A DNA stretch of 64,000 nucleotides, from NCBI GenBank assembly GCA_902781465.1, contig CACZJK010000001.1, positions 142,831 to 206,830 of the forward strand, in the 5' to 3' direction. The notes under the pieces were generated by a model. That model was given only the letters and a program-made list of their open reading frames with translations, searched no databases and was not told where the DNA came from. The position numbers and the translations under genes were made by a program. The first letter of the stretch is position 1, and every line of letters begins with the position of its first letter. The DNA comes from an uncultured Pseudomonadota bacterium (GTDB lineage: Bacteria > Pseudomonadota > Alphaproteobacteria > Rs-D84). Below, one piece after another: positions 9,226 to 24,813 of the stretch.

Positions 9226-9289
9226 TTTATAAAAATTCCTTTCTTTTTAATAAATATGGTGCAATATTTACTTGGGCGAGGTATAAAAA

Positions 9290-10132
9290 ATGAAAAATAT
9301 TTTAATTACTGGTGCAAATGGTCAATTGGGGTCAGAATTGGCAAGGATTATGCCATCGGCTGTTTTGACGGGACACAATGTTTTAGATATTACTGATAAG
9401 GTTGCTGTTGATAAATTTATAAAATCAAGAAAGATAGATACTGTTATAAATTGTGCTGCTTATACTGCGGTTGATTTAGCAGAAGATAACTATGATGATG
9501 CGTATAAAATAAATGCAATTGGACCAAGAAATTTAGCACAAACAGGATGCAAAATAATTCATATATCAACAGACTATGTTTTTTCTGGAAATGCGAAAGT
9601 CCCATATAAAACAACAGATAAAACAAATCCTTTGTCTGTGTATGGTTCTACTAAATTGGCCGGGGAAAAAGCGATTTTAGAAAATTCTGAAAACGGTATA
9701 ATAATCAGAACTTCTTGGCTATATTCTGAATTTGGAAAGAATTTTGTTAAAACTATGCGCAATCTTGGTGCAAGCAGAAGTGATATTTCGGTTGTTGCGG
9801 ATCAATACGGTTTGCCAACTTATGCGGCGAATTTAGCCTTTGCTATTTTTCAAATTATCCCACAAATAAAGCCGGATAATTCAGGTATATATCATTATTC
9901 AAACTCTGGTTCAGGAATTTCTTGGTATAATTTTGCAGATGAAATAATGAAACAATCTGGTTTGAACTGTGTTGTAAAACCTATAACCACAGATCAGTAT
10001 CCAACACGTGCAGTGCGCCCAAAGTACAGCGTAATGAATACTTCTAAAATACAGAAAACTTTTGGTGTAAAGATACCAATGTGGCAAGACGCGCTGAAAC
10101 ATTGTATCAAAGAATTGGAAAAACAGCATTAA
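9290..10132 (+). CDS. rfbD: dTDP-4-dehydrorhamnose reductase-like (RmlD family) NAD(P)-dependent reductase
   Basis: N-terminal ILITGANGQLGSEL Rossmann motif and overall RmlD length (280 aa); no rmlABC nearby, so the exact substrate is uncertain. Confidence 0.65.
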   Translation: MKNILITGANGQLGSELARIMPSAVLTGHNVLDITDKVAVDKFIKSRKIDTVINCAAYTAVDLAEDNYDDAYKINAIGPRNLAQTGCKIIHISTDYVFSGNAKVPYKTTDKTNPLSVYGSTKLAGEKAILENSENGIIIRTSWLYSEFGKNFVKTMRNLGASRSDISVVADQYGLPTYAANLAFAIFQIIPQIKPDNSGIYHYSNSGSGISWYNFADEIMKQSGLNCVVKPITTDQYPTRAVRPKYSVMNTSKIQKTFGVKIPMWQDALKHCIKELEKQH

Positions 10133-10176
10133 ATATATTGAAAAAAAGTGCTTTTTATGATATAATATAAACCAGT

Positions 10177-10222
10177 TCGACGGGGGATGCCGTCGATTTT
10201 TTTTATGCCGGGTTTTCCCGGC
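10177..10222 (+). terminator. Tandem terminator hairpins (CGACGGGGGATGCCGTCG then GCCGGGTTTTCCCGGC), each followed by a T-run
   Basis: Read directly downstream of the rmlD-like gene. Confidence 0.5.
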
Positions 10223-10249
10223 TTTTTTGTTATAACAAAAGGATAAATA

Positions 10250-11164
10250 ATGAATAAATTTATATTTTCTGGAAATGGTAAAAATAAAGATTTTTATTTT
10301 ACTTTTCCTTTCTTTTCAAATGCTGATATTGTTGTAAAAATCAACAATGATTTAGCGACCGGATATGGTGTTTTCTGTATTCCTGGTACAGGCAATAATG
10401 ATTTTCCTTTTACAGGTGGCCATATTCATTTTGCAACCGCACCAAAGACAACTGATGTCATAACCATAGAACGCAAATTGCAATTAAACCGCCTGATAGA
10501 TTATCAACCAACAGCGCCTCTTAATTCAACAACAGTTAATCAAGATATGAATTATTTCTTTGAATTGCTGAAAGATGTAAAAAGTGAATTGCTGGGTTTT
10601 GCAGAAACTTATAAAGAATTCACAGATACAGAAAGTGCGCAAGAATTGTTGGCGCGCATAGATGCTGTTATCGAAGAAATAGATAATCTTGGCGATATAT
10701 CAACGATAACAAGCAGTATATCAGAACTGGGCTCGTCGATAACAAGTTTGACTAATTCTTTGAACAGTTTGACAAGCACAGTCGGTGCGCATACGACAGA
10801 TATTGTGGCGCTTAGCGCTTTCAAAGACGGGGTTCTTGATTATGTGGTTGAATCGCAAGAACCAACCGCAGAAAACAATTATACCTGGTATCGAAAATAC
10901 AAATCTGGCTGGGTCGAACAAGGAGGTCAGATAACAAACAATAATGGTACTGAAAGAACTATATCTTTACCAATAACTATGACAAATACGAACTACACAT
11001 ATAACGATTGCTTTGAAACAATTATTCGCGAAGGCGGAAGCCCATGGCGAATAGTCGACACACCAAATGTATTAACAAACAAAACAACGACATCTTTTAC
11101 AAGATATATGCCAGATTGCGCAACAATAATACGTTGGAGTGTCTATGGCATTGCAAGCAATTAA
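10250..11164 (+). CDS. Phage tail-fibre-like protein with a T7 gp17-type N-terminal tail-attachment domain, a coiled-coil/Ser-Thr-rich shaft and a C-terminal globular tip
   Basis: N-terminus FSGNGKNKDFYFTFPFFSNADIVVKINN...DVITIERKLQLNRLIDYQP parallels T7 gp17 (DGSNRDFNIPFEYLARKFVVV...TTIELRRVTSTTDRLVDF); middle SSISELGSSITSLTNSLNSLTS repeats; followed by a hairpin terminator at 11165-11195. Confidence 0.55.
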   Translation: MNKFIFSGNGKNKDFYFTFPFFSNADIVVKINNDLATGYGVFCIPGTGNNDFPFTGGHIHFATAPKTTDVITIERKLQLNRLIDYQPTAPLNSTTVNQDMNYFFELLKDVKSELLGFAETYKEFTDTESAQELLARIDAVIEEIDNLGDISTITSSISELGSSITSLTNSLNSLTSTVGAHTTDIVALSAFKDGVLDYVVESQEPTAENNYTWYRKYKSGWVEQGGQITNNNGTERTISLPITMTNTNYTYNDCFETIIREGGSPWRIVDTPNVLTNKTTTSFTRYMPDCATIIRWSVYGIASN

Positions 11165-11177
11165 AAAACGGTTGTTT

Positions 11178-12254
11178 TTACAACCGTTTTTTTCTGTTTT
11201 GTATTTTGTATTTTATCATTGCACCACCATACCAAAAACAAGAAATTATATCTGCAATATAATGTCTTATTTTTTTTAATCTACAAAACGGACGTACTAC
11301 AATCTTATAATGATTTGCAAAATGTTCTTTTAAGTTTTCAAAATATTCACCATTATAATAATCTTTATAAGATTCGTCACAATATCTTTTATAATCTTTT
11401 ACAAAAGTTGGATATAAATATATGCCATGAATCCAATCATCTGCAGCAAGATAATCTTTGTTTTTAGAAAGTTTTTTATATGTTTTTTTCTGAATATATA
11501 CACCAATTTCATTAAACCCAACCGATATAACATTATTAGCTAATAATATATGCGATAATTGAACTTTATCTAATGTATAATCTAATTGGTCTTTCATCTT
11601 GCATTCAGGAAAATAGCGAGAAAAGAAATTCATTCCAACCCATTGTTCTGGCGGAAATTTCCAAGTTGCACCTTTATCGAGTATTTTGAAACCTGTATTT
11701 TTTTCATAAAACAACGAAAAATCAGGTTCATTTGTCAACGGACAGTCATAATAATCTTTTACATCTTCAGTTAACCCAAAACACAACCAATCACTTAAAT
11801 CAAAAGGTCTATCAATAACAAATTTTGGAGATAACGTTTCTTGATAACGAGAAAATATACTATAAAATAAAACACGCTCTTTAAATATTGAATATTTTTT
11901 ATCCCGTTTTGGAAATTGTTTTGCAATATCATTTAATATTTTTGAATTTGTAAATATTAAATCGGAACGCATACGAATAACATATTTTGTTTTAACCGCA
12001 CCTAAACCAGCCTTGGAAGTCACCAAAATACGGTTGGTCATATTGCTTAAAGTTTTTGTTATTTTTGTTGCGCCAGGATCATCAGATTCAACCAAAACAT
12101 CATAATCAAGTCCATCAACATTATGATTTTTATATGTTGAAAATATAATAGTTGCCCCAGGCAAATATTTACGGATGCTTTTTATACATCTTTTTGTCTG
12201 ATGTTTTATGTTTATCCCTTGAACAACAACAGATATATCTTTTGGATTTATCAT
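11178..12254 (-). CDS. Putative LPS/polysaccharide biosynthesis protein (WavE-like family)
   Basis: N-terminal ISVVVQGINIKHQTKRCIKSIRKYLPGATIIFSTY resembles the WavE family start; Y/W-rich and AT-biased like the surrounding glycan genes. Family call is tentative. Confidence 0.35.
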   Translation of the reverse strand: MINPKDISVVVQGINIKHQTKRCIKSIRKYLPGATIIFSTYKNHNVDGLDYDVLVESDDPGATKITKTLSNMTNRILVTSKAGLGAVKTKYVIRMRSDLIFTNSKILNDIAKQFPKRDKKYSIFKERVLFYSIFSRYQETLSPKFVIDRPFDLSDWLCFGLTEDVKDYYDCPLTNEPDFSLFYEKNTGFKILDKGATWKFPPEQWVGMNFFSRYFPECKMKDQLDYTLDKVQLSHILLANNVISVGFNEIGVYIQKKTYKKLSKNKDYLAADDWIHGIYLYPTFVKDYKRYCDESYKDYYNGEYFENLKEHFANHYKIVVRPFCRLKKIRHYIADIISCFWYGGAMIKYKIQNRKKRL

Positions 12255-12979
12255 TTATAATCCTTTTTATTAAAATAATATGTATTATTTCTATCCCAAA
12301 TAAAATTACCAGATTTTAAAACTTTTGCTGGTTGTCCACAGAATATATATGGTTTTTTACTGTTTTTTGGATTTGATGCAGACGTATACAATGTTCTCGC
12401 TCCCAAAATTGAACCATCTGGAATATTCGCACCTTTTAATATTAAACATTGTGTACCAACCCAAACATGATTTCCTATCATTATATTCTTTGGTTTATTA
12501 ATGGCATCACCTTTGTCATCTATTATCGCATGTCCATCCGAAGGCCATATTGTTATATCAAAAGACAACATACAATCCTTGCCTATTTTTACAATTCTTT
12601 CTGGTTCATCATGTAACCATATTTTTGCACCTTCAACAGAACAATCAGAATCTATAAGCAACTTGCTGTATCTTGACATTCTAGCAGGTATGATTAAATC
12701 TTTTATATAAAAGTTAGTTTGTTTTATTTCTATAATATTATCATCACCTACTTCAAAATAACAATTGATAAATCTATAAGGTTCATGTATTTTTACAACA
12801 CTATTTTGCCCCAAAAATTTAATTGTTAATCCTTTGACTTTTTTTATTTCTTTTATTTTGCCATCTTTTTTAACAATTAATATTTTGTTGTTCTTTATTC
12901 TGGACAACATGTCAAAATATTTACATGTTTTACCAAAAGTTAAATGCTTTAATAATCTATATAAATTATTACGCGACAT
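12251..12979 (-). CDS. Hexapeptide-repeat (left-handed beta-helix) O-acetyl/acyltransferase
   Basis: Hexapeptide repeats IGNHVWVGTQCLILKGANIPDGSILGARTL; typical WbbJ/NeuD-like size. Confidence 0.6.
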   Translation of the reverse strand: MSRNNLYRLLKHLTFGKTCKYFDMLSRIKNNKILIVKKDGKIKEIKKVKGLTIKFLGQNSVVKIHEPYRFINCYFEVGDDNIIEIKQTNFYIKDLIIPARMSRYSKLLIDSDCSVEGAKIWLHDEPERIVKIGKDCMLSFDITIWPSDGHAIIDDKGDAINKPKNIMIGNHVWVGTQCLILKGANIPDGSILGARTLYTSASNPKNSKKPYIFCGQPAKVLKSGNFIWDRNNTYYFNKKDYK

Positions 12980-12982
12980 AAC

Positions 12983-13990
12983 CTAGCCTTTGTAATTTTT
13001 TTGATATTCAATAATTTCTTTTAATCCGTCCAATAAATCTGTTTTTGCAACATAGTCAAATTCAGCACGGACTTTGTCGCCATTACCAAGGCAATGTTTA
13101 AATACTTCTTGTTTTACGCGTTCTTTTTTCAAGTTATAACGCGCATTAAACAATTCTTCGTATTTATCCCAAAACTTTAATGGTTCACCTGTATCATATT
13201 CTAATTCTTTACCCAACGCAGCATAGATTGTTTGAGCTATTTCCATTGCAGAATATGCTTTACCGGTTGCCAAATTGAAAATATCTGCATGATATTCTTT
13301 GTCTGACATTGCCATACGATACAAATATTGCATCAAATCATAAACATAGATATAATCGCGTTTACAATCTTCTGTGTTATAAATTGTTGGTTTACGTCCC
13401 GCCAATGCTTCACGAATCAAGAAAGATGTAAATGGTGGATATTTACGTTTAAAATCTTGGTGTGGACCAAACACGTTAAAGAAACGACATATTACAATAT
13501 CCATACCATAATTTTGTGCAAATGATTTACAAATTTGTTCTGAACAATATTTAGTTGTTGCATAAACTAAATTTGGGTGAACTTCATCTGTTTCTTTGTG
13601 AACTTCATCAGATGGATTGTTTTCATAAATTGCAGATGTTGATGCGAATATAACACGTTTTACATTGCTGCGACGAACCGCATTTAATACATTAGCAGTT
13701 GCAGCCGTATTCACATCAAACGCTTTATATGGATGTGATTCACATTCTGGTAACGCAGAAATCCCAGCAAAATGATAAACAATATCAATTCCTTCTAAAT
13801 ATTTACCAAAATCAGGGTCACGAACATCTGCCATGATAAAGTTTTGTTTTAACGTTTCATTATCTTCAAAATTATCACGATAACCATATTCCAAATTATC
13901 CAACAATTTTACATTATGTCCTTGAGATAATAAAAATTTTCCCAATTCAGAACCTATGAAACCTGCACCACCTGTGATAAGAATATTCAT
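12983..13990 (-). CDS. NAD-dependent nucleotide-sugar epimerase/dehydratase (extended SDR)
   Basis: MNILITGGAGFIGSELGKFL Rossmann motif; YxxxK region; 335 aa. Confidence 0.75.
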   Translation of the reverse strand: MNILITGGAGFIGSELGKFLLSQGHNVKLLDNLEYGYRDNFEDNETLKQNFIMADVRDPDFGKYLEGIDIVYHFAGISALPECESHPYKAFDVNTAATANVLNAVRRSNVKRVIFASTSAIYENNPSDEVHKETDEVHPNLVYATTKYCSEQICKSFAQNYGMDIVICRFFNVFGPHQDFKRKYPPFTSFLIREALAGRKPTIYNTEDCKRDYIYVYDLMQYLYRMAMSDKEYHADIFNLATGKAYSAMEIAQTIYAALGKELEYDTGEPLKFWDKYEELFNARYNLKKERVKQEVFKHCLGNGDKVRAEFDYVAKTDLLDGLKEIIEYQKNYKG

Positions 13991-14005
13991 GTTTTTCCCT
14001 TTTGT

Positions 14006-15064
14006 TTAATCTATGTAATCTTTGATTGACGAATTACGCGGTAATGTGATTGCAATGCCAGAAGGATATGGATTTGTTGGTGCAAAATCATTTATAACTA
14101 CACGTGCCGCGTGATTCATTCCCATTAAAATTGCATATGGTTTTATGCCAACTTCATTTAACATTTTTTGAAGGTTTTCACGAAATTCTTCGCCACGTGA
14201 AGTTGTTATAACTATTTGTGCGCCGTTATCCTGTAATTGTTTTAATGTTTCCACATTGTCTTCCAACATGGTTGTATTGTTATACCAATTTATTTTTCCA
14301 TATTTGCCAGAATTTTTCATTATAACACCATCAACATCTACAAAATATGTGCGGTGTTGTTTTTGAACTTTTTTCCATTCAGTTAATGTTCCCCAATCAT
14401 CATAAGAATCTGCATAAACCGCCTCAAAAACATAATTATCAGATGATAACATATACGAAATTACGTGTGATATATACATTTCGCCAGAAATTTGGTGGCT
14501 TTGCATTTCTTCGTATGCTTTTACAAAATCGTTTGCGTTTTCAAAACAATATACCCCCAAACAAATTACATTTGATACAACCTGTTTTTCGATAATGTCT
14601 TGGATAACACCTTGTTCATTTACTATCAAGAAACTTTTCCCTGGGATATTTGTGACGTCACGATGTTTATGCAAATCATACCCAACAATCATATTTTTTA
14701 TTTGTTTATCAAAATGAACACCAACACGATTATCTGAATCTTTGATAACAAAAGAACCTTCGACATTCATTTTCTTTAGTGTTAAATATATTGTTTCGCT
14801 GGCGCTTGAAGTAAAATCGTCCAATAAACAAATTTCTACCTTTGGATTGTTTTCAAAGACTTGATGCATAATAAGGTTTGCTTCGTATTTATCGTCGTGT
14901 GGTTTTACGATTGTAATTATGATACGGTCAAAAACGTCAATATTGATGTTTTCCATAGCCTTTTCAATCATTAATTTTCCATCTGGATGAGTAAGCATAT
15001 ATTTGGGTTTCATATTTGGGAAACGACTTGATTTTCCAGCACATGGAATTATAAGGGTATTCAT
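14006..15064 (-). CDS. Bifunctional sugar-phosphate/phospho-alcohol nucleotidyl(cytidylyl)transferase (LicC/IspD-like N-domain) fused to a HAD-family phosphatase domain
   Basis: N-terminus LIIPCAGKSSRFPNMKPKYML (nucleotidyltransferase G-loop); C-terminal YFVDVDGVI...TTSRGEEF (HAD motifs I-III). Confidence 0.55.
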   Translation of the reverse strand: MNTLIIPCAGKSSRFPNMKPKYMLTHPDGKLMIEKAMENINIDVFDRIIITIVKPHDDKYEANLIMHQVFENNPKVEICLLDDFTSSASETIYLTLKKMNVEGSFVIKDSDNRVGVHFDKQIKNMIVGYDLHKHRDVTNIPGKSFLIVNEQGVIQDIIEKQVVSNVICLGVYCFENANDFVKAYEEMQSHQISGEMYISHVISYMLSSDNYVFEAVYADSYDDWGTLTEWKKVQKQHRTYFVDVDGVIMKNSGKYGKINWYNNTTMLEDNVETLKQLQDNGAQIVITTSRGEEFRENLQKMLNEVGIKPYAILMGMNHAARVVINDFAPTNPYPSGIAITLPRNSSIKDYID

Positions 15065-15924
15065 TATTTATTCTCCTTATTATCTAAAATGTTATTCAAT
15101 TTCGTGATTGCGTTATGTAAAAATGTCCGTGTAGTATCATCTTTTGCGTATGGGACAATTCGCATAACATTTAAAAGCAAGATGTAATAAATCTGTAAAA
15201 CTTTTTTATTACCATCCGGTAATTCAGAAATGTATTTAATTAAGCCATCGCGCGCGACCGCCAATCTTAATTCAAGATTTGACGATATTTCTTCATGACG
15301 ATAAGACCATTGTAATTCAAGATCTTGTAATAGTTTTGCCACATCTATCATCCAAGAATCGAAAAATGAATCTAAAAAGTCTATTAAATAAATATTGCCT
15401 TTGACGTCTAATAATATGTTTTCTAAAGTTAAATCACCGTGACATTTAGAATACGGAATTTCAGAAAAATTAAAACCTTCCAATCTTTTTAGTGCGTTTA
15501 TATAAATGTCTTCGGTTGGAATATTGTTATAAAGCGATTTAATTTTCTTTTGAAAAATTTCATTTGTTTCTGGCATAACAACACTATCATCAATGTGTAA
15601 TTCATTAACAACCCATTCAACAAATGCAGGTATTTCTTTGATTGATACTGTTTCCATATACTTCGCCATTGTACAGCAATTCAAATATTCCATATCAAAA
15701 TAAAAAATACCATCTTGGATACCTGTTTTATAAATTTGCGGAACACGAATATTTGAATTTTTCGATGATTTATAACCAACTTGTTTTGCGATTTGTATTC
15801 GTAATCTTTTGTTATAATCTGGACGCCCCGCTGTTTTACGGACGAAGAAAAGATCATTTTCGCGGAACAGTGAAATTTCACATCCACTGTGTCCCGATAA
15901 ATTTTTTATAAATTGTTCTGACAT
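15064..15924 (-). CDS. Choline/aminoglycoside-kinase-family small-molecule kinase (LicA-like)
   Basis: Brenner motif HGDLTLENILLD and DFLDSF metal-binding motif of the APH/ChoK fold; stop/start is coupled with the cytidylyltransferase gene. Confidence 0.55.
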   Translation of the reverse strand: MSEQFIKNLSGHSGCEISLFRENDLFFVRKTAGRPDYNKRLRIQIAKQVGYKSSKNSNIRVPQIYKTGIQDGIFYFDMEYLNCCTMAKYMETVSIKEIPAFVEWVVNELHIDDSVVMPETNEIFQKKIKSLYNNIPTEDIYINALKRLEGFNFSEIPYSKCHGDLTLENILLDVKGNIYLIDFLDSFFDSWMIDVAKLLQDLELQWSYRHEEISSNLELRLAVARDGLIKYISELPDGNKKVLQIYYILLLNVMRIVPYAKDDTTRTFLHNAITKLNNILDNKENK

Positions 15925-15946
15925 TATTTTTTCCTAAAATATTCAA

Positions 15947-16834
15947 TTAATCAAATTTTCCAATTGAAAAGACAAAACTAAACCAGTTAAACAAATTGAT
16001 ATCTATGTTCGTTATTGGCGGTAAAATACGCAATAAGTGAATAAAGATACCTTTTTTCCTTAAATGGAAACTTATTATGTTTGAACGGTTTAATTTTATT
16101 TGTGCAAAGCGTTTAATCTTGAAAGATTTTATATATTGATACGAACCAAGATATACTGGACGTAAATTATGTGATAAAATATTATCTATTAAAAAACCTT
16201 CGGCATGATAATCTATGTTATCTCCTTTTTTTGCAGGCACTTTTAATTTGTCGCAAAGTTTTGATATTGCTTTTGCACCACCAAAAAATAATAAATCGAC
16301 AGTTTCAACATAATTTAATCCATACATATCACGATCTGGGGTGTGTCCTGCCAGATATATATTTGTCCCATCTTGATTAAATTTATCGTTTATGTATTTT
16401 TCAATCTTCAAATCTTCTAACAACACAACATCAGGTCTTATACAAACAACCATATCGTATTTAATCTTGTGTTTTTTTTGGTAATCTTCGCGTAATTTAT
16501 TAACTGTTTTAATAGAATGATATACAGACATTAAACCTTGAAGAGCGAATTCGTATCCGTGGACTATAATTTTATCGTCAGTATATAATTTTTGATGTTC
16601 GATTTTGATTTGTTCTGGCAAAATACCGAGTTTTTGTATTATTTGTTCTTGATTAACTTTCTTATTTACATTTTTGAAATTATTATGCCAAGTCTTTGAA
16701 TTATGGTTGTATGTATCCCATGTATGCATAAAAATATCGCACTCATAGCGATTTAATAAGTGTCTTTTTATTGACGGCAGGCATTTTTCAAATGTCCTTA
16801 AATGACCAAAAAATTGAACCGCTATGCGTGGCAT
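15947..16834 (-). CDS. Hypothetical protein, possible sugar transferase; first gene of the minus-strand glycan operon
   Basis: 295-aa ORF immediately outside IR-L of the invertible segment; no firm motif. Confidence 0.45.
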   Translation of the reverse strand: MPRIAVQFFGHLRTFEKCLPSIKRHLLNRYECDIFMHTWDTYNHNSKTWHNNFKNVNKKVNQEQIIQKLGILPEQIKIEHQKLYTDDKIIVHGYEFALQGLMSVYHSIKTVNKLREDYQKKHKIKYDMVVCIRPDVVLLEDLKIEKYINDKFNQDGTNIYLAGHTPDRDMYGLNYVETVDLLFFGGAKAISKLCDKLKVPAKKGDNIDYHAEGFLIDNILSHNLRPVYLGSYQYIKSFKIKRFAQIKLNRSNIISFHLRKKGIFIHLLRILPPITNIDINLFNWFSFVFSIGKFD

Positions 16835-16860
16835 AAAAAACTCTTTTTTTCTATAAAAAC

Positions 16861-16881
16861 CAATCGGTCGTTTGATGTTTA
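16861..16881. repeat. IR-L: CAATCGGTCGTTTGATGTTTA, left arm of a 21-bp perfect inverted repeat (hix/gix-like recombination site)
   Basis: Exact reverse complement of 17577-17597; contains the imperfect palindrome ATCAAACGACCGATTGAT, whose half-site ATCAAAcgACC resembles the Hin/Gin half-site ATCAAAAACC. Confidence 0.8.
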
Positions 16882-17489
16882 CAGGTTTTGACTGTGCAAA
16901 AATGCGTAAAGTGTTGGTGGGGAAATTTTGAATTTTCTGGCTATTTTGGTCTTTGGCATGTCTTTGGCATACCTTGTTTTATCATATTTATTATTTTGTT
17001 TTCGTTGCCATCGATTTTATGATGCGTGTTTTTACTGCCAAAACGCCGCCCAAGAATCACACCTGCTTCGCGACGGCGCGCCAAGGCTTCACGTGTGCGC
17101 AGACTGATTAAATCTCGTTCTATTTCTGCGGAAATTCCAAACGCAAAAGCCAATACTTTCGATTGAATATTGTCACCCAATTCATAGCCGTCTTTGACGG
17201 TATAAACATAAGCCCCACATTTCATACAATGTTCCAAAATTCGCATAATCATAAATAATTTTCGGCCCAGGCGCGATAATTCAGAACAGATAATAATGTC
17301 GCCGGTTTTCAGTTTTTTCAAAATTCCACCAAGTGCACGATTATTTGGTTCGACTGTCCCAGAAATTCCAGAATCCATAATATATTTATCTATTGTTATT
17401 CCCATAGATTTGGCCTTGGTTATAATTCCTGTTTTCTGGTTTTCACAGTCTTGTTTATCTGTGCTGACGCGAATATATCCGTATATCAT
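16879..17489 (-). pseudogene. Hin/Gin/Cin-family small serine DNA invertase, frameshifted by an 11-bp tandem duplication; the present ORF (16941-17489) lacks the C-terminal HTH
   Basis: N-terminus MIYGYIRVSTDKQ (catalytic Ser) and resolvase core. The + strand shows GTCTTTGGCAT twice in tandem (16949-16959, 16960-16970). Removing one copy restores ...GMPKTKIARKFKISPPTLYAFLHSQNL* with a Hin-type HTH and a stop at 16879-16881 inside IR-L. Confidence 0.7.
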
Positions 17490-17543
17490 TTTGTTTTCCT
17501 TTTTTTGTGTTGTTATATCCAAATAGGAAAACAAACAAACGCT

Positions 17544-17572
17544 TGATATTAAAGAAACTTATTTGTATAGTA
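17544..17572 (+). promoter_or_regulatory. Near-consensus sigma70 promoter TTGATA-17-TATAGT inside the invertible segment, reading outward across IR-R into the + glycosyltransferase operon
   Basis: TTGATA 17544-17549, 17-nt spacer, TATAGT 17567-17572; RBS AAGGA then ATG at 17623. Confidence 0.55.
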
Positions 17573-17576
17573 TTCA

Positions 17577-17597
17577 TAAACATCAAACGACCGATTG
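17577..17597. repeat. IR-R: reverse complement of IR-L (AAACATCAAACGACCGATTG plus flanking base)
   Basis: Exact 21-bp inverted match to 16861-16881. Confidence 0.8.
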
Positions 17598-17622
17598 ATT
17601 TTAATAAAATAAGGATTTTTAT

Positions 17623-18702
17623 ATGGCAAAAAAGATTTTCGTTTCTTTGAAAAAATTTTCTATTAATTTTGTGGGGTTAAGGTTTAAAAGACATCATATT
17701 AAAAATAATACTATTTTATTACTGGAAACTAATGTTTGTCATGGTGAAGTTATGTCGGGTTATATCGAATACTTCAAAAGATTGGGATATAATATAGATT
17801 GCGTTTTACATACAGATTTTTTACAAGATAATCCTTTTTCAAGACATGATATGTCAAAAATAAACTGTTTTTATTTAAATAAAATTTGTATGAAAAGATT
17901 TATAAAATACAAAAATATTCGTAAATATAAACATGTTGTTATTATGTCTAGTACTTATTATGGAGATTTTGGTTGGGAAGGCGTGATTGATTTTGCGCCT
18001 GAATTAAAACGCCACCCTTCTGTTTATCTTGTCGAACACGAATTGAATTGTATCGAACCGCAAAACGAACAAGAATACCTTGATAAAAATCATATAATAG
18101 TTCTTGGTAAGTTTGATCGTGGTGTTTTTGTGAACCCGCATTTGTTTGGTAATGTAAAAATTACCAAAAAGAACAAAATTCCAACTTTTATAAGTGTTGG
18201 TGGAATTATGGCATTCAGGAAAAATCATGCCGAATTGATTTCTGCAATACAGGAATTGGTTAAACAAAAACAGAAGTTTAAAGTGGTTGTTATTGGGCGT
18301 GGAAAATTAAATGATTTGCCAGATGAAATCAAACCTTATATTGAAATTACAGGGCGTTTAAATTTTCCAGAAATGTTTGAACAAATGGAAAAAGCAGACT
18401 TTTTCCTGCCTTTACTTGATCCAAATAATCCAGACCATGAACGCTATATTACAACCGGTGTGACAGGTTCTGCTCAATTGATATACGGTTTTGAAAAGGT
18501 GCCTGTGATACAAAAAAAGTTTGCAAAGTTTTATCGTTTCAACAATAAAAACGCGATAGTTTTTGAAAAAAGTTTGGCAACCGCCATGTCAAAAGCCATT
18601 TCTTTATCAGGACAAGAATACAATACTTTGCAATCAAATTTACACAAAACCGCACAAGAAATTCAAAAAGAAAGCTTTGATAATTTGAAAAGGATATTTT
18701 AA
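17623..18702 (+). CDS. Hypothetical protein, possible GT-B-fold glycosyltransferase; first gene of the + glycan operon
   Basis: C-terminal KVVVIGRGKLNDLP...EITGRLNFPEMFEQMEKADFFLPL resembles the C-domain of GT4-like enzymes; weak. Confidence 0.4.
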   Translation: MAKKIFVSLKKFSINFVGLRFKRHHIKNNTILLLETNVCHGEVMSGYIEYFKRLGYNIDCVLHTDFLQDNPFSRHDMSKINCFYLNKICMKRFIKYKNIRKYKHVVIMSSTYYGDFGWEGVIDFAPELKRHPSVYLVEHELNCIEPQNEQEYLDKNHIIVLGKFDRGVFVNPHLFGNVKITKKNKIPTFISVGGIMAFRKNHAELISAIQELVKQKQKFKVVVIGRGKLNDLPDEIKPYIEITGRLNFPEMFEQMEKADFFLPLLDPNNPDHERYITTGVTGSAQLIYGFEKVPVIQKKFAKFYRFNNKNAIVFEKSLATAMSKAISLSGQEYNTLQSNLHKTAQEIQKESFDNLKRIF

Positions 18703-19658
18703 TGAAAATATCAATTGTTGCACCGATTTATAACACTGGAAAATTCTTACCAGAGTGTATTGATAGTGTATTAAATCAAACTTTCCAAGATTGGGAATTG
18801 ATTCTGGTGAATGATGGATCACCAGATAACAGCGAAGAAATTTGTAAAAAATATATAAAGAAAGATAAAAGAATACGGTATTTTTATCAAAAAAATTCTG
18901 GTGTTTCTGTGGCGCGCAATTTAGGTATATCAAAGGCAAAAGGTGAATATGTTTTTTGTATGGATTCTGACGATACTTTGGATTCCAGATTTATTGAAAC
19001 TTCTTATGATGTCGCAATTAAAAATGATTCTGATATAGTCGTTATTGGTGATTGGTTTGCATGTCGTTTGCCACGGCCCGCAGCACTGCCAACTTGTGCA
19101 ATGTTATTGCGTAAAAGTTTTTTAGATAACCACAAAAATATTCGTTACCCCATTGGAATACAACCATGTGAAGATGGTCTTTTTTCACATCAATTATTGG
19201 CATTGACTGATAAAATCGCTTTTAATCCAATGGGAATATATAATTATCGTGAACACGAAAACGGAAACCATATTGCAATAAATAAATCATGTGAAAAAGT
19301 GTTAAAGCAAATTCCACAATGGTTTGAAATATTGGAAAAGTTTTATGATAAATATGATCTTTGGGATAAACATGGTTCGCATCTTTTGAAATTTATAGAA
19401 CACGAACCTTTTGATTTCAGATTTAGATCGATGCCATTTTCTTCAGATCAAAAAGAATTTTTATTTAAAATAATACACGATTTTATGAATAAACATAATT
19501 TAAGAAAGTATAGAAATAGAAAATTGTCAAAGCGATTTAGATTGTTTTTGTTAGCTTCTTCTTATATAAAATATGAAAAATATATATGCATATATAATTC
19601 TATAGTCAAATTTTTACATACATTTAAACAGCGCAGACCAGAAAAGGATAACACATGA
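18702..19658 (+). CDS. Glycosyltransferase family 2
   Basis: ISIVAPIYNTGKFLPECIDSVLNQTF...ILVNDGSPD...MDSDD (GT-A DXD). Confidence 0.85.
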   Translation: MKISIVAPIYNTGKFLPECIDSVLNQTFQDWELILVNDGSPDNSEEICKKYIKKDKRIRYFYQKNSGVSVARNLGISKAKGEYVFCMDSDDTLDSRFIETSYDVAIKNDSDIVVIGDWFACRLPRPAALPTCAMLLRKSFLDNHKNIRYPIGIQPCEDGLFSHQLLALTDKIAFNPMGIYNYREHENGNHIAINKSCEKVLKQIPQWFEILEKFYDKYDLWDKHGSHLLKFIEHEPFDFRFRSMPFSSDQKEFLFKIIHDFMNKHNLRKYRNRKLSKRFRLFLLASSYIKYEKYICIYNSIVKFLHTFKQRRPEKDNT

Positions 19659-20815
19659 AACTGTTGTTAGTTGTAAATTCGTCTCTTATTAATTCTACCG
19701 GTGGTGTTGAGCACGTTTTGTGTGATATGGCAAATGAAATGGAAAAACGTGGTTTTGATGTTCATATTGCAACAATGGAAAACAAAGAAGGAAAGCCTTT
19801 TTTCTATTTAAATAAAAATATAAGTTTTAAGAATTTGTACCCAGAATTGAGCAATAAAAATAAATTTATAAAAAAATTGATATCGCTATTTTTGAAGATA
19901 GCAGGCAAAAATAATTATAGGGATTTTTATTTCAAATCTTTAGTTTATCAAAAATATATACATTCTATTCAACCAGATTTAATAATAGCTTTTTCTTTGC
20001 CGACATTATTGGAGATGACATATACGAATAAAGGAAAATGTCCAATTATATTGACTGTTCATGGAAACCCAGTTAATGATTATACAGATAGGTTTTGGTC
20101 AAGGCCAACTTATATGAATAAATTATTTAGAAAAACTTATAAAAATGCAGATGTTATACAGGTCCTTTTGGATAGTTATAAATCTTTTGTTCCAAAAGAA
20201 TATAAGGGTGAAGTAATAACAATTGGAAATATAGCACCTTTTGTCTCAAAAGAACCGTTGTCATTAGATAAACAAAAAATTACAAGTATTGGACGACTTT
20301 GTTTGGAAAAACATCAAGATTTATTAATAAAGGCTTTTGCTAAAATCAGTGATAAATTTCCAAATTGGTCTTTGGATATATATGGTGAAGGTTATTTAAG
20401 AGAAGAATATCAAAGCCTGATTGATAAATTAAAAATGACAAAAAAGATTCATTTAAAAGGTACTAGCAAGAAAACGAAAGAAATTTTAATAAATTCTTCC
20501 TTATTTGTTTTACCGTCACATGTTGAAGGGTTCCCTTTGGTGTTAGCAGAAGCAATGGGAGTAGGGTTGCCTTGTATTGGATTGCAAGATTGTGATGGGA
20601 CAAATGAAATTATAAAACATAAAGAAACAGGTTTTTTGGTTGCTGATGATGAAAATGATTTGGCAAAAGCGATGAGTTTGTTGATGTATGATTCTAAATT
20701 AAGACAAAAATATGGAAAAAACAGCCAACATGAAATGTTGCAATATTCATCTAATATAATTTGGGATAAATGGGAAGATTTAATTAAAAAAACAATCAAC
20801 GAAAAGAGAAAATAA
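19655..20815 (+). CDS. Glycosyltransferase family 4 (GT-B)
   Basis: C-terminal EGFPLVLAEAMGVGLPCIG motif; overlaps the upstream gene by 4 nt. Confidence 0.85.
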   Translation: MKLLLVVNSSLINSTGGVEHVLCDMANEMEKRGFDVHIATMENKEGKPFFYLNKNISFKNLYPELSNKNKFIKKLISLFLKIAGKNNYRDFYFKSLVYQKYIHSIQPDLIIAFSLPTLLEMTYTNKGKCPIILTVHGNPVNDYTDRFWSRPTYMNKLFRKTYKNADVIQVLLDSYKSFVPKEYKGEVITIGNIAPFVSKEPLSLDKQKITSIGRLCLEKHQDLLIKAFAKISDKFPNWSLDIYGEGYLREEYQSLIDKLKMTKKIHLKGTSKKTKEILINSSLFVLPSHVEGFPLVLAEAMGVGLPCIGLQDCDGTNEIIKHKETGFLVADDENDLAKAMSLLMYDSKLRQKYGKNSQHEMLQYSSNIIWDKWEDLIKKTINEKRK

Positions 20816-20816
20816 T

Positions 20817-21695
20817 ATGAAAAAGAATTTACCGGTTTGTAATCTTAGTGTAAAAGCTGGGTTGGGAAATAGGATAAAAGGATTGTTTTCTTTTATTCGT
20901 CAATATCAACCAAAAGAAATGATTTTAATTTGGCCTAAAACTCTTGTCAAAAAATCTTTTTTAGAATTATTTTGCTTTGATTATCCTGTAAAAATTTATG
21001 AAAAAGATATTCCAAATTATAATATCCCTGAACAGTCTTGGCGTTTTTATGTGTCAGAATCCGACAATATTTCAAAAAACTTTTCAAAAATTCCATTAGA
21101 TTTTAATGACCCTGTTTTTGATTTGGAATACAATAGAACACCAAAAAGAATGGTAAAAGTATATTCGCAATATTTTCAAAAATTAAAACCAAACGCAAAT
21201 ATTCAAAAAATTATTAATTCTGTTATATTGCCAAAAAATACAGTTGCTTTGCATGTTCGAAACCATTCTGATTGGAAAGATGGTGGTAGAAATACAAATT
21301 TGAAAGAATTTACCAAATGTATGGATAAATATTCTAAGGATACTTTTTTCTTTTTATCTGCTCATGATAAAGATATATCTGATTATTTTAAGAAAAAATA
21401 TAAAATAATAGAAGTTCCAAATAAAAATTATTCATCAATAGAATATGCGATTGCTGATTTATATTTATTATCAAAATGTAAAGAAGCAATTTATTCTTGT
21501 GGTTCTACTTTTTCAGAAATCTCTTGGTGGATTGGCGGGTGCAAGGCCAAAGCGCATGTTATAGGCTCTTATGATGATTGGGTTGAAGTAAATAAAAGAA
21601 TTAAATTTTTCAGAATAGAAAAAACTGAAAATCGTACAAGATTTTACTTTTTTGGTAAAAAAATATTATCGATAAAAAGACCTACTAAAAAATAG
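20817..21695 (+). CDS. Putative fucosyltransferase-like glycosyltransferase (GT11-like motifs)
   Basis: HVRNHSDW (compare GT11 HxRRGDY) and C-terminal CGSTFSEISWWIG (compare GT11 SNSTFSWWAA). Confidence 0.4.
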   Translation: MKKNLPVCNLSVKAGLGNRIKGLFSFIRQYQPKEMILIWPKTLVKKSFLELFCFDYPVKIYEKDIPNYNIPEQSWRFYVSESDNISKNFSKIPLDFNDPVFDLEYNRTPKRMVKVYSQYFQKLKPNANIQKIINSVILPKNTVALHVRNHSDWKDGGRNTNLKEFTKCMDKYSKDTFFFLSAHDKDISDYFKKKYKIIEVPNKNYSSIEYAIADLYLLSKCKEAIYSCGSTFSEISWWIGGCKAKAHVIGSYDDWVEVNKRIKFFRIEKTENRTRFYFFGKKILSIKRPTKK

Positions 21696-21707
21696 CAGGT
21701 CTAATAT

Positions 21708-22013
21708 TCATGCCTTTGGATATTTTGATTTTATCTCGGCAATTTTTTCTTGCCATTTGTTTGTGTTGTTAACTTTATCCCAATATATCATATCCAGTTG
21801 TTCTGAAATGCTTGGATATTCATTTTGCCTTTTTTCAACGTAAGTTTTTTCTGGTTCAATTGGTGCATAACCTTTGACATACAAAAGTCCATCATATCCG
21901 GTTTCTGTTTCGCCTGTATAAACTTCCATGCCCCATTTTTTTACTCGTTCTTGATTGTTTTTTGTATCAAGCCATTCATTTAATATAAAACTATTTTTTT
22001 CTTTGACTAACAT
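21708..22013 (-). CDS. Small phage-associated protein (about 101 aa), probable tail-fibre assembly/chaperone-type partner; start MLVKEKNS overlaps the upstream stop (TAATG)
   Basis: TAATG stop/start overlap with the tail-fibre-like gene; acidic, W/Y-rich. The six-frame ORF extends further to 22088, inside the upstream gene. Confidence 0.4.
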   Translation of the reverse strand: MLVKEKNSFILNEWLDTKNNQERVKKWGMEVYTGETETGYDGLLYVKGYAPIEPEKTYVEKRQNEYPSISEQLDMIYWDKVNNTNKWQEKIAEIKSKYPKA

Positions 22014-22540
22014 TATAAACTCCCTTTTAACGGAAAAATTTTTAAAGATCTGTCCACGTTGCGACCGCCAACCATTTTCCAATACCACCCTTTTGGAACA
22101 TAAAATTCACCAGAAATTTTAAAAGAACCAGAGCCTGCATTTGATTCACGTAATGTTGTAAAAGTATTGCCATCAGAAGACACACATGGGGCAACATTAG
22201 GATTTCCATCAATGTGATTAGTCTGATAATTAACAACACAATCATAATCTGCTAAATATGTTGTGTCCCAATTCTTACTGACAGGTGCAGAATAATCTGG
22301 CGTTGATAGGTTAGATATAACTTTTTTACCTGTTGTGCTTATGTTATCCATATCTGTATTGGCTTTTGATGTGACGGTTGGTATTTCGCTTTGTTTGGCC
22401 AATTTTATGCCGCCTGCGGTTTCACCATCGTGAACACGTAATGTTTTATTTGTTGTGTCCATGGTGACTTCGCCAATTGCGCCGGTAAAGGCATCATTTT
22501 CCGTCGCTGTTCCGCGACGAATTTGTATTTGTCTTGACAT
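22013..22540 (-). CDS. Small phage tail-fibre-like protein carrying the HylP/tail-fibre N-terminal motif
   Basis: IQIRRGTATENDAFTGAIGEVTMDTTNKTLRVHDGETAGGIKLA matches the conserved N-terminal block of phage hyaluronidase/tail-fibre proteins (…RxxxAxW…L..GE.G.ETDT..lK.GDG). Confidence 0.5.
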   Translation of the reverse strand: MSRQIQIRRGTATENDAFTGAIGEVTMDTTNKTLRVHDGETAGGIKLAKQSEIPTVTSKANTDMDNISTTGKKVISNLSTPDYSAPVSKNWDTTYLADYDCVVNYQTNHIDGNPNVAPCVSSDGNTFTTLRESNAGSGSFKISGEFYVPKGWYWKMVGGRNVDRSLKIFPLKGSL

Positions 22541-22674
22541 TAAATTACTCCATTTTTATATAAAAAAGGCCGGCATTTGCCGGCAATTAAACAAATAAAA
22601 ACGACGGTTTTGCCCCATCGAATTGCTTTTATTATATCATAATTTCAATAAAAAATCAATGTTTTGCTTTTTAT

Positions 22675-22702
22675 TTGATTTTTTGCGATTCATGGGTATA
22701 AT
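22675..22702 (+). promoter_or_regulatory. Sigma70-like promoter TTGATT-16-TATAAT for tRNA-Thr
   Basis: TTGATT 22675-22680; TATAAT 22697-22702; tRNA starts at 22714. Confidence 0.5.
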
Positions 22703-22713
22703 ATCTGGCGATT

Positions 22714-22787
22714 GCCCTAATAGTCTAGTGGTAAAACACGTCCTTGGTAAGGACGAGTCGCAAGTCCGATTCTTGCTTAGGGCACCA
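22714..22787 (+). tRNA. tRNA-Thr (GGU)
   Basis: Acceptor GCCCTAA/TTAGGGC; anticodon stem CGTCC/GGACG with loop TTGGTAA; T arm GCAAG-TCCGATT-CTTGC; encoded CCA. Confidence 0.85.
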
Positions 22788-22948
22788 GGTTTTTTCAAAT
22801 ATGTTGATGCGACTGACAACCGCGGAGTGTTTGTGAAATCTTAAAAGTAAGAAAAGCAGGGTGGCACCGCGCGAAAAAATCTTAGCGCCCCTGTGATTTA
22901 AGATTTGAATTGGTGCCGTATCCAAAAATTTTATTACGACACCGAAAT

Positions 22949-22972
22949 CCCACTTCGCCAAGGCTTCGTGGG
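22949..22972 (+). repeat. Conserved hairpin motif CCCAC-TTC-GCC-AA-GGC-TTC-GTGGG (copy 1 of 2; copy 2 at 55151-55176)
   Basis: Shared core CTTCGCCAAGGCTTCG; the outer stem differs by compensatory changes (CCCAC/GTGGG versus CCCGCC/GGTGGG). Confidence 0.4.
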
Positions 22973-22995
22973 ACAAGCAAAAAAAGGTGTAAAAA

Positions 22996-24765
22996 ATGCT
23001 TTCTTTGAAATCTAAATACAGAACGCATACCTGTGGTGAATTGACTGAAAAAAACGTTGGTGAAGTTGTCACTTTGTCAGGTTGGGTTCATCGTAAACGC
23101 GATCATGGTTCTTTGTTATTTGTTGATTTGCGTGATAATTATGGAATAACTCAGTGTGTGTTTGATGGCGGGGATGAAAATTTAGAAAAAATTCGTCCTG
23201 AATCTGTTATCAGAATTACTGGTAAAGTCGTTGCGCGTGATGCAGAGGCGATTAATGATAAAATCCCAACTGGTCATATTGAAATAAAATCTGAAAATTG
23301 GGAAGTTTTAACAAACGCAGAAGTTTTGCCTTTCCAAGTTTTTGGCGATGAAGATACCAGTGAAGAATTGCGTTATAAATATCGTTTCTTAGACTTGCGT
23401 CGTGAAAAATTACACCACAATATTTTAATGCGCAATAAAATGATGAAGTGGTTGCGCGATAAAATGTGGGATATGGGATTCAGTGAATTCCAAACACCTT
23501 TGTTGACGGCTGATTCCCCAGAAGGTGCACGTTGTTTCTTGGTCCCAAGTCGTTTGCATCATGGTAAATTCTATGCGTTGCCTCAGGCGCCACAGATGTT
23601 CAAACAATTGTTGCAAGTATCTGGGTTCGACAGATATTTCCAAATTGCACCTTGTTTCCGTGATGAAGATTTGCGCGCAGACAGATTGTTAGAATTTTAT
23701 CAATTAGATATCGAAATGTCCTTTGTGGATCAATCTGATATTCAGGCGGTTGGTGAAAAATTGATGCCTGAATTTGTAAAGGCTTTTGCGCCAGATGCAA
23801 ATGTATATCCTGAAATTCCACATATTTCTTTTGACGATGCGATGTTGAAATATGGTTGCGATAAACCAGATCTTCGTAATCCTATTTTGATATCAGATGT
23901 GACGGATGTTTTCCGTGGTTCAGATTTCGGAATATTCGCAAATGCAATTGAAAACGGTGCGGTTGTGCGTGCTGTTCCTGCGCCAAAATCATCTGATAAA
24001 CCACGTTCTTGGTTTGATAAATTAGGTGATTATGCGGTCAAAGAATTAGGTCTTGGTGGGTTAGGTTATATAGTTTTTGCCGAAGAAGCCAAAGGTCCAG
24101 TTGCAAAGAAATTGGATGCAGACCGTATCGCCAAATTACACGAAATTGCAGGCGATAATTCTTCGATATTCTTTATTTGTGATATGGAAGAAAAGGCTGC
24201 AAAAACCGCCGGTAAATTACGTAATAAATTGGGTGAAGATTTGGGCTTGGTCAATCCACGTGATTTTGCTTTTTGTTGGGTTGATAATTTCCCGTTCTTT
24301 GAACCAGATGAAGAACGTGCAGGTGCACCAAAGTTCACACACAATCCGTTCTCTTACCCAATTGCGACATTGGAAGAACTGAATACAAAAGATCCTTTCT
24401 CTATCAAGGCGGCGCAATTTGATATGGTGTTAAACGGTATTGAAATTTGCAGTGGTGGTTTGCGTAACTATAACCCAGATGTTATGAAAAAATGTTTTGA
24501 TATCGCGGGTTATCCAATCGAAGCCGTTGAACAAAACTTTAATGCTTTGTACACTGCGTTCAAATATGGCGCACCACCACACGGTGGATGTGCGTTTGGT
24601 ATTGAAAGATTGGTTTCTGAAATCTTGGGCGATGGTGAAAGCGTTCGTGAAATCGTTGCGTTCCCTGCGAACCAGCGTGGCCAAGATTTGTTAATGGGAT
24701 CGCCAAACGAAGTGACTGAACAACAATTACGTGATGTACATATTCAAGTACGTAAACGTGGTTAA
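22996..24765 (+). CDS. aspS: Aspartate--tRNA ligase
   Basis: 589 aa; class II aaRS motifs (FRDEDLRADR, GGCAFGIERL); N-terminal OB anticodon-binding domain. Confidence 0.95.
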   Translation: MLSLKSKYRTHTCGELTEKNVGEVVTLSGWVHRKRDHGSLLFVDLRDNYGITQCVFDGGDENLEKIRPESVIRITGKVVARDAEAINDKIPTGHIEIKSENWEVLTNAEVLPFQVFGDEDTSEELRYKYRFLDLRREKLHHNILMRNKMMKWLRDKMWDMGFSEFQTPLLTADSPEGARCFLVPSRLHHGKFYALPQAPQMFKQLLQVSGFDRYFQIAPCFRDEDLRADRLLEFYQLDIEMSFVDQSDIQAVGEKLMPEFVKAFAPDANVYPEIPHISFDDAMLKYGCDKPDLRNPILISDVTDVFRGSDFGIFANAIENGAVVRAVPAPKSSDKPRSWFDKLGDYAVKELGLGGLGYIVFAEEAKGPVAKKLDADRIAKLHEIAGDNSSIFFICDMEEKAAKTAGKLRNKLGEDLGLVNPRDFAFCWVDNFPFFEPDEERAGAPKFTHNPFSYPIATLEELNTKDPFSIKAAQFDMVLNGIEICSGGLRNYNPDVMKKCFDIAGYPIEAVEQNFNALYTAFKYGAPPHGGCAFGIERLVSEILGDGESVREIVAFPANQRGQDLLMGSPNEVTEQQLRDVHIQVRKRG

Positions 24766-24784
24766 TAATAAATCTTGAAAAAAT

Positions 24785-24809
24785 ACCCCGATTTGTTCGG
24801 GGTGTTTTT
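24785..24809 (+). terminator. Rho-independent terminator CCCCGATTTGTTCGGGG followed by a T-run (after aspS; also serves the convergent asmA-like gene)
   Basis: Read directly. Confidence 0.6.
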
Positions 24810-24813
24810 TTTA

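Follow-up and report, generated by a model that had tools for sequence, protein, structure and literature searches.

The gene transfer agent (GTA) of Rhodobacter capsulatus, RcGTA, is a siphovirus-like particle with an HK97-type gene cluster, regulated by CtrA, quorum sensing and GafA, and we know of no leader-terminator control in that system. Its head-spike genes (ghsA/ghsB, rcc01079/80) and tail-fibre genes lie away from the structural cluster, and these receptor-binding genes adjoin polysaccharide biosynthesis genes whose product they bind (PMC10218006). The Caulobacter GTA (CcGTA) is controlled by the antiterminator GafZ (PMC11150451), and the Bartonella GTA (BaGTA) by the Q21-like antiterminator BrrG (bioRxiv 10.1101/2024.11.20.624540). 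A further point of comparison is Mtd of phage BPP-1, a receptor-binding protein that carries at its extreme N-terminus, in the first ~55 residues, the domain Mtd_N (PF18454). Here we describe a gene pair that has features in common with all of these, ORF A and ORF B (open reading frames A and B), in a 64,000-nucleotide stretch of contig CACZJK010000001.1 (the window) from an uncultured alphaproteobacterium of the Rs-D84 lineage (Table 1).

ORF A and ORF B belong to a clade-wide set of dispersed fibre genes and are not part of a prophage. Most genes of the set have a leader in which a promoter is followed by one or more terminator-like hairpins, and those at the borders of surface-polysaccharide islands turn the conserved 5' end outward and the variable 3' end to the island. 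Because related genomes hold a head-tail module behind the same promoter and double-terminator design, we propose, at a rough probability of 0.55, that ORF A, ORF B and a second fibre gene of the window (fibre 1) serve a domesticated GTA-like particle as exchangeable receptor-binding parts, under antitermination control and in linkage with the polysaccharide locus. The comparisons below draw on a scan of one genome per species, which gave 80 related loci, nearly all of them belonging to Candidatus Enterousia or to unnamed Alphaproteobacteria of gut and rumen; individual loci and contigs carry handles beginning with L. Genomes of the Rs-D84 order group measure ~0.75-1.0 Mb and lack the tricarboxylic acid cycle and respiration (PMC12306168).

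ORF A, a small Mtd-type fibre protein

ORF A begins with MSRQIQIRRGTATENDAFTGAIGEVTMDTTNKTLRVHDGETAGGIKLA, the motif from which the original prediction had recognised a phage tail-fibre type, and profile searches place both it and its partner in phage families. Mtd_N is matched at 46.4 bits against a cut-off of 26.3 (E 3.7e-12), with residues 5-41 aligned to profile positions 1-37 of 37, and the PHROG match is phrog_9648, 'tail protein'. Identity to BPP-1 Mtd is 41% across the N-terminal 76 residues. When the ORF A family profile was compared with the PDB, the Mtd structures 1yu0-1yu4 were the only matches (E 2.3e-16). The same motif had been ascribed to the streptococcal phage hyaluronidase HylP as well, a similarity that we could not recover: no HylP chain in the PDB is matched at E<=1, the ORF A model contains no beta-helix, and the protein is too short to be of the HylP type, in which a collagen-like region and a lyase domain of triple-stranded beta-helix form come after the N-terminal block.

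The AlphaFold model (predicted local distance difference test score, pLDDT, 85) consists of a small N-terminal domain, a helix and a C-terminal beta-sandwich; by residue, these are an Mtd-type attachment domain (1-54), a linker helix and the sandwich (~95-175). A Foldseek search of the PDB returned Mtd as its top five matches, the best being 1yu1 at E 4.6e-4. As modelled, this layout is the usual build of a trimeric receptor-binding tip, in which the first ~54 residues would dock the protein onto a phage tail or fibre and the sandwich would be the variable, ligand-binding end. We take ORF A to be a small receptor-binding protein of phage origin, probably trimeric. Unlike BPP-1 Mtd, ORF A is half-size, carries a small beta-sandwich in place of the C-type-lectin variable domain and has no retroelement in the window. 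Its gene is chromosomal and isolated instead of lying within a phage genome, and its family owes its diversity to swapped C-terminal modules and to several paralogs per genome.

A protein collection yielded 527 homologs of ORF A, of which all named ones are annotated as coming from a metagenome-assembled genome (MAG) of an Alphaproteobacteria bacterium. The Mtd_N genes of the 80 loci are without exception small, at 84-236 aa and, two genes apart, 146-193 aa; the N-terminus is conserved, the C-terminus falls into many unrelated classes, and several genes occur per genome. In all 80 viral contigs examined the domain again stands at the extreme N-terminus. The nucleotide homology that links more than 60 loci to the window breaks off abruptly at ~22379 (codon 54), and a second conserved box of 90 nt marks the start of the commonest C-terminal domain. 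Together the break and the box form the mosaic pattern expected of tip swapping by recombination.

Two observations on particular family members are recorded here. A subfamily beginning MTRILQIRRG (~190 aa, C-terminus ...KFTVYY) always lies between a protein of 600-875 aa and acetate kinase (L052, L071, L077, L078, L081, L083-L085, L087 and L088, at ~7300-11900 in each); these genes carry the promoter-terminator cassette described below, the large gene upstream has a promoter but no terminator behind it, and its 600-875-aa product has no Pfam or PHROG match. In L047 (6314-7700), ~22 tandem units of 66 bp, each with a promoter-like TTGCTTTCCAAATCAGTTTTGATATAAT, stand 5' of a resolvase homolog and an Mtd_N gene.

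ORF B, a partner tied to one knob class

As predicted from the sequence, ORF A is followed by a 101-aa gene whose start overlaps its stop: the TAA of ORF A (22015-22013) and the ATG of ORF B (22013-22011) have one base in common (TAATG). Given this overlap and a Shine-Dalgarno sequence, GGGAG, 6 nt 5' of the ATG, translational coupling of the two genes is plausible. ORF B is mildly acidic (pI 5.6) and rich in aromatic residues (4 Trp, 8 Tyr), again as first described. In its family (133 matches) the N-terminal beta half is variable and the C-terminal helical domain of 45 aa is almost invariant, with the motif YPxIxEQLDMIYWDKVNxTNxWQEKIAEIKxKYPK. It is through this C-terminal half that ORF B matches PHROG (phrog_9114, E 4e-13), all matches there being of unknown function; no Pfam family is found at E<=1. 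The AlphaFold model is confident (pLDDT 95) and has no fold match in the PDB or BFVD at E<=0.001.

Homologs of ORF B lie directly 3' of a fibre-like gene in pelagiphage HTVC131P (gp46/gp47) and cyanophage S-T4. In L299 the homolog follows a 330-aa T7-type fibre with a C-terminal knob of the ORF A class, and in L091-93 a truncated ORF A-like knob. From these positions we conclude that ORF B is a fibre-associated partner tied to one knob class: it travels with the fibre C-terminal class ('MPDY...KGA' knob) whatever the N-terminal anchor, as fibre/assembly pairs do. The arrangement, a small gene tightly 3' of a fibre gene, resembles Mu S/U, P2 H/G, lambda stf/tfa and T4 gp37/gp38. Unlike tail-fibre assembly proteins, ORF B is conserved at its C-terminus and variable at its N-terminus, and most related fibres have no partner; searches of Pfam, PHROG, the PDB and BFVD gave no sequence or fold match to known chaperone families (Caudo_TAP, T4 gp38 type). 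The proposal of a fibre gene with an assembly chaperone thus holds for the partnership and not for the chaperone. We regard ORF B as a small phage-type partner made with ORF A by translational coupling, which may be either an assembly helper or a component of the tip, and a chaperone role would be a guess. One further homolog, in L297 (1373-4457), has a tyrosine integrase and a resolvase just 5' of it at an island border, beside a degraded fibre gene.

A leader of promoter and terminators

The ORF A-ORF B operon has a near-consensus sigma-70 promoter with 10 of 12 matches and an extended -10 element (TG-A-TATAAT, TG present), found by an independent promoter and terminator scan. Downstream of it, the 80-90 nt leader holds two tandem hairpins of the intrinsic-terminator form, each a GC-rich stem-loop followed by at least five T residues, and then a ribosome-binding site (GGAG, 22551-22548) before the ATG at 22540. 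Both hairpins are present in the centroid fold of the leader. The second, GCCGGCAAATGCCGGC followed by CTTTTTT at 22584-22569 on the minus strand, is the one that the original prediction had located correctly and interpreted as an orphan. It is not an orphan, because the promoter and the first terminator stand upstream of it on the same strand. Nor would it stop minus-strand read-through from the side of tRNA-Thr, since that gene is on the plus strand, with its own promoter, and is transcribed away from ORF A.

A reading of the hairpin family as small mobile palindromes fares no better. Four near-identical copies of the hairpin (ACCGGCAAATGCCGGT) occur elsewhere in the window, against 0.04 expected by chance, and each lies 6-8 nt after the stop codon of a plus-strand gene, like an ordinary terminator; the 16-nt copies at 37258, 38417, 54465 and 55118 are identical on the matched strand. 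The leader hairpins of relatives stand at a constant position but differ in stem sequence from one locus to another. A second hairpin, GCCGGGTTTTCCCGGC, is likewise present in two identical copies, at 6982 (after a gene ending at 6973) and at 10207 (in the fibre 1 leader), and the terminators of the source genome reuse the same short sequences. Overall, the earlier gene calls and the idea of a fibre with a partner were right and the interpretation of the hairpin was wrong. No Rfam family was found in the ORF A or fibre 1 leader; a sub-threshold T-box-like match in the aspS leader (22795-22895; 21.5 bits, E 0.28) is probably due to chance.

The same anatomy is a trait of the family. Among the leaders examined, 51 of 82 have the consensus TTGATTTTTT-n6-TTTnTGATATAAT with an invariant 17-bp spacer; a GC-rich hairpin with a T-run begins ~10-15 nt past the -10 element, a second hairpin with a T-run often follows, and the -10 element lies a median of 80 nt from the ATG. 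For comparison, the 150 nt upstream of Mtd_N genes were set against the same interval before other genes encoded in these 1.5 Mb. Of the 79 Mtd_N genes, 48 have a -10 element with a terminator-like hairpin no more than 35 nt behind it; of the 388 other genes, 3 do. At least one terminator-like hairpin lies upstream of 60 of 79 and 56 of 388, respectively; 18 of the 79 Mtd_N leaders have two tandem hairpins with T-runs of at least five. A stricter cassette motif was found 57 times, 48 of them before the focal Mtd_N genes. The remaining nine cassettes precede three Mtd_N paralogs, a phage-lysozyme-like (endolysin-like) gene in L049 and a 153-aa ORF without matches, and four have no downstream gene call. 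The promoter motif alone is generic: in IMG/VR it occurs on more than 120 viral contigs, AT-rich and unrelated to one another, and no homolog of Mtd_N or ORF B was present on them.

The order of a constitutive-looking promoter, terminator(s) and then structural genes, with terminators inside the cluster, is that of phage late genes (lambda, 82 and 21 Q) and of the GafZ- and BrrG-controlled GTAs. From this shared order we infer control by an antiterminator, of a type in which one factor could tie dispersed loci together. In contrast to those systems, the present loci have yielded no antiterminator, binding element or pause site.

Fibre genes at the borders of polysaccharide islands

From N- to C-terminus, the product of fibre 1, the other fibre-like gene that had been noted in the window, consists of a tail-fibre domain of the T7 type, a coiled coil and a final domain beginning with NNYTWYRKYKSGWVEQGG. 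Its PHROG matches are phrog_30017 (E 2.6e-12) and phrog_1640 ('tail protein'), and its C-terminal domain is common to 51 ORFs in the related loci, mostly the Mtd_N genes themselves. Its leader is built like that of ORF A: the upstream region of fibre 1 and the ORF A leader form the longest inverted repeat of the region, ORF A leader terminator 1 has its homologous hairpin there (found as inverted repeat I1), and these two leaders are the only promoter-then-terminator cassettes in the window. The folding energy of the fibre 1 leader has a z-score of -3.8.

Fibre 1 and ORF A bracket the surface-polysaccharide island from opposite edges, both pointing inward. The island encodes WavE, an acetyltransferase, an epimerase, a nucleotidyl-transferase/HAD protein, a kinase and glycosyltransferases of families GT1, GT2 and GT4. 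This border position is found throughout the related loci: the first gene downstream of the Mtd_N gene is convergent in 63 of 78, at a median gap of ~27 nt, and the downstream genes are mostly of the GT2, GT1, hexapeptide acetyltransferase, DUF1796 and sugar-modifying families. On the upstream side lie housekeeping genes of mixed kinds, with one GT1 and one GT2 match in 76. In one MAG, a single glycosyltransferase cluster is flanked on both sides by Mtd_N genes, as the island is in the window. As in RcGTA, the proposed receptor-binding genes of an alphaproteobacterium stand beside polysaccharide genes and away from a main structural cluster. Unlike those of RcGTA, the fibre genes bracket an island and point inward, and no sequence relationship to RcGTA was seen, none having been tested for.

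Table 1. Features of the window discussed in the text, with positions counted from its first nucleotide.
Feature	Position	Strand	Size	Description
fibre 1 leader	10138..10228	plus		promoter 10138-10166; terminator 1 10178-10195 + T-run; terminator 2 (GCCGGGTTTTCCCGGC) 10207-10222 + T-run
fibre 1	10250..11164	plus	304 aa	T7-type tail-fibre N-terminal domain, coiled coil, C-terminal domain
surface-polysaccharide island	11178..21695		11 kb	low GC (28-32%)
terminator after ORF B	21678..21702	minus		shared with the convergent 292-aa island gene ending at 21695
ORF B	21708..22013	minus	101 aa	fibre-associated partner; start overlaps ORF A stop
ORF A	22013..22540	minus	175 aa	small fibre or 'knob' protein
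leader terminator 2	22562..22584	minus		GCCGGC-AAAT-GCCGGC then CTTTTTT
leader terminator 1	22594..22620	minus		CGATGG-GGCAAAA-CCGTCG then TTTTTATTT; hairpin 22620-22602
ORF A-ORF B operon promoter	22631..22659	minus		-35 TTGATT, 17-bp spacer, extended -10 TGATATAAT
tRNA-Thr (GGT)	22714..22787	plus		own promoter 22675-22702; divergent from ORF A

The site itself, between tRNA-Met and tRNA-Thr/aspS, holds different islands in the relatives L017 and L015, with tRNA-Thr as its conserved right border. The flanks of this hot spot (7005-9106 and 22675-25966) are 75-78% nucleotide-identical to L017 and L015, and the 12-14 kb between them differ; in L015 the island is inverted together with tRNA-Thr. 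The island genes are mosaic, with best matches in different genomes, and one (14006-15064) has 87% protein identity to L042, above what the flanks predict.

At the exact boundary between the island's two divergent operons lies the gene of a serine recombinase (197 aa; PF00239, E 3e-30), on the minus strand at 16941-17534. Inverted repeats of 36 nt with 89% complementarity stand on either side of it (16846-16881 and 17577-17612). Recombinase and repeats (16846-17612) look like an invertible switch. Homologs of the recombinase at 64-69% identity occur in or beside the polysaccharide islands of L067, L047 and L020; among these a similar flanking repeat was seen only in L067, with weak support. 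A copy of the right-arm repeat stands beside tRNA-Thr in L017. A search of relatives for conserved inverted repeats near the resolvase, and for repeats that would account for the island inversion in L015 and L017, gave weak support in L067 and none otherwise.

A head-tail module in related genomes

In 15 of the 80 loci, a 407-aa T7-type portal gene (PF12236, E 1e-80) lies ~1 kb 5' of the Mtd_N gene, and in 11 of these 15 a 571-aa tail protein, a 182-aa T7-type fibre and part of a large terminase are found further upstream. The tail protein (phrog_376, E 1e-83) has 951 homologs, of which the best 120 are all 571-575 aa long, at 71-100% identity, on contigs of up to 777 kb. Fibre 1 is related to the 182-aa fibre of this module (tblastn E 3e-18). 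The whole module was seen in two genomes, in the order cell-wall hydrolase-like gene, T7 scaffold (PF05396), basic protein, capsid (PF19821), tail tube A (a weak match) and tail tube B, the ATPase part of the terminase, an inverted three-gene block with dnaB, the nuclease part of the terminase, portal, and the BPP-1 family protein Phage_Bbp19. The module coordinates are 6335-18590 in L295, 6352-18587 in L300 and 44-8708 in L035. No replication or RNA-polymerase genes are present in the module of the two genomes. The large terminase is split by the opposite block, which consists of a 224-aa gene, a 334-aa gene with two helix-turn-helix motifs and dnaB, and each terminase half is kept from species to species. 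In the module leader, two tandem terminators stand behind a promoter, and further terminators lie between the module genes.

With Phage_Bbp19 and a T7-type portal, the module, which is strongly conserved in the related genomes, is BPP-1/T7-like and of the podovirus type, as opposed to the siphovirus-like RcGTA. It has the appearance of a phage element of this type that was domesticated and that selection maintains in very small genomes. In our literature search we found no paper describing such domesticated particle genes in these bacteria. The IMG/VR 'viral' contigs L215, L235 and L259 are chromosomal fragments of Enterousia-like bacteria, evidently flagged as viral because of the domesticated phage genes; the proteins of L215 are 97-100% identical to most of those of L035, dnaB included. 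Virus catalogues thus already hold chromosomal fragments of these bacteria as viral contigs, which is a practical warning.

Proposed mechanism

We hypothesize that transcription of the fibre genes would start at the strong, conserved sigma-70 promoter and would stop within ~30-70 nt, at the two leader terminators, so that the genes would stay silent until a processive antiterminator is made. The Mtd_N and T7-type N-terminal domain fibres would be the natural receptor-binding parts of the relatives' head-tail module, which the source genome may likewise carry and from which particles may be produced. Linkage to the island would keep the binder together with its likely receptor, the polysaccharide. 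The outward, conserved 5' part of each fibre gene could act as a homology arm, so that the variable tip and the glycan genes would move jointly, and recombination breakpoints would be expected at codon ~54 and at the NNYTWYRKYKSGW box.

More tentatively, and at rather less than even odds, the proposal can be widened to Candidatus Enterousia and its relatives (Rs-D84, <1 Mb) as a whole. These bacteria may maintain a BPP-1/T7-like podovirus as a multilocus GTA-like system in which the module, the lysozyme and the dispersed fibres form one regulon. Its tandem-terminator units would be jointly released by an antiterminator, and the border cassettes would swap tip and glycan genes, matching particle specificity to the bacterium's own surface.

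Several observations weigh against the proposal. First, no antiterminator gene was identified, termination and read-through are predicted from sequence alone, and the ORF A leader folds only modestly better than shuffled sequences (z -1.7). Second, the head-tail module is not in the window, where tblastn with the module proteins matched only fibre 1; the module promoter (TTGACT...GTCAA) and the fibre promoters (TTGATTTTTT) are unlike in sequence; and the split terminase could mean that the module no longer packages DNA. Third, the Mtd_N domain is 34-76% identical across many unrelated viral contigs, and because it is kept in such contigs, N-terminal identity alone is no proof of a single docking partner. 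Finally, an ORF B-type partner follows only 2 of 80 related fibre genes, and when fibre C-terminal class was set beside the content of the adjacent islands, the genes next to ORF B proved to lack close counterparts among the loci sampled, the islands being mosaic.

Alternative explanations

The main rival to a particle is a stand-alone lectin or adhesin, on the cell surface or secreted, that was recruited from a phage fibre and acts by binding, anchoring or recognising the adjacent polysaccharide. The constant adjacency to polysaccharide genes would suit such a protein, and in the Foldseek search the C-terminal sandwich of ~80 residues weakly resembled TNF/C1q and carbohydrate-binding (CBM4/6) sandwiches. 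Bacteria with reduced genomes, probably host-dependent, may need adhesins, and the head-tail module was seen in relatives and not in the window. We nevertheless judge this explanation unlikely. ORF A has no signal peptide at its N-terminus, where it carries instead the domain that attaches Mtd to the phage fibre; fibre 1, with an N-terminal domain that docks to T7 tails, has the same C-terminal modules and the same leader; an Mtd_N gene lies near the portal gene in 15 relatives; and a lysozyme gene shares the cassette.

Almost as probable as the adhesin, though unlikely in its turn, is that the leader hairpins do not gate transcription and are 5' stabilising stem-loops, the source of a tiny leader RNA, or leaky terminators, the genes being constitutive. 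The first hairpin begins unusually early for a terminator, and lambda tR' is farther from its promoter than the fibre-leader terminators are. The z-score of the ORF A leader is weak, and identical hairpins serve as ordinary terminators elsewhere in the window. Against this, the hairpins are followed by T-runs of at least five and form tandem pairs in 18 of 79 leaders, the arrangement is nearly absent from other genes (3 of 388), and the extra terminators between module genes fit processive antitermination as in CcGTA and BaGTA.

We consider it improbable that the genes are functionless leftovers of a decaying prophage that once integrated near tRNA genes. They are indeed of phage type, the pair does sit between two tRNA genes, and truncated versions without the Mtd_N part exist in L091-93 and L298. 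Both ORFs are intact, however, with confidently predicted folds, and hundreds of intact family members persist in genomes of less than 1 Mb. Promoter, double terminator, ribosome-binding site and border position are kept across dozens of species. No other prophage gene is found among the window neighbours, which are housekeeping genes (aspS, an AsmA-family gene, uvrB, ftsA, ftsQ, ruvABC, recA, mnmE and secB), and the 3' end of tRNA-Thr, the usual integration point, faces away from the pair.

The idea that ORF A might serve a diversity-generating retroelement as its variable protein, as Mtd does in BPP-1, was rejected as highly improbable: the N-terminal domain is shared, but the protein has 175 aa against 381 in Mtd and no C-type-lectin domain in its AlphaFold model or among its Foldseek matches, and the window contains neither a template-like repeat of the ORF A 3' region nor a Y/F-x-DD motif in any ORF of at least 200 aa.

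Implications

By itself, the ORF A-ORF B pair is one more Mtd-type fibre gene, and what is unusual is its setting. Bacteria with strongly reduced genomes keep several intact phage fibre genes and, in relatives, a whole podovirus-type head-tail set, highly conserved and with the same promoter-terminator switch. The leader offers a concrete, testable handle on regulation, in the ratio of short terminated transcripts to read-through. If the proposal of a domesticated GTA-like particle is true, these uncultured gut and rumen symbionts would hold a new, podovirus-derived counterpart of the alphaproteobacterial GTAs, and the locus would join RcGTA as a second, independent example of receptor-binding genes physically linked to polysaccharide genes that probably make the receptor. 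The layout of the locus further suggests how binder and receptor could be exchanged jointly.

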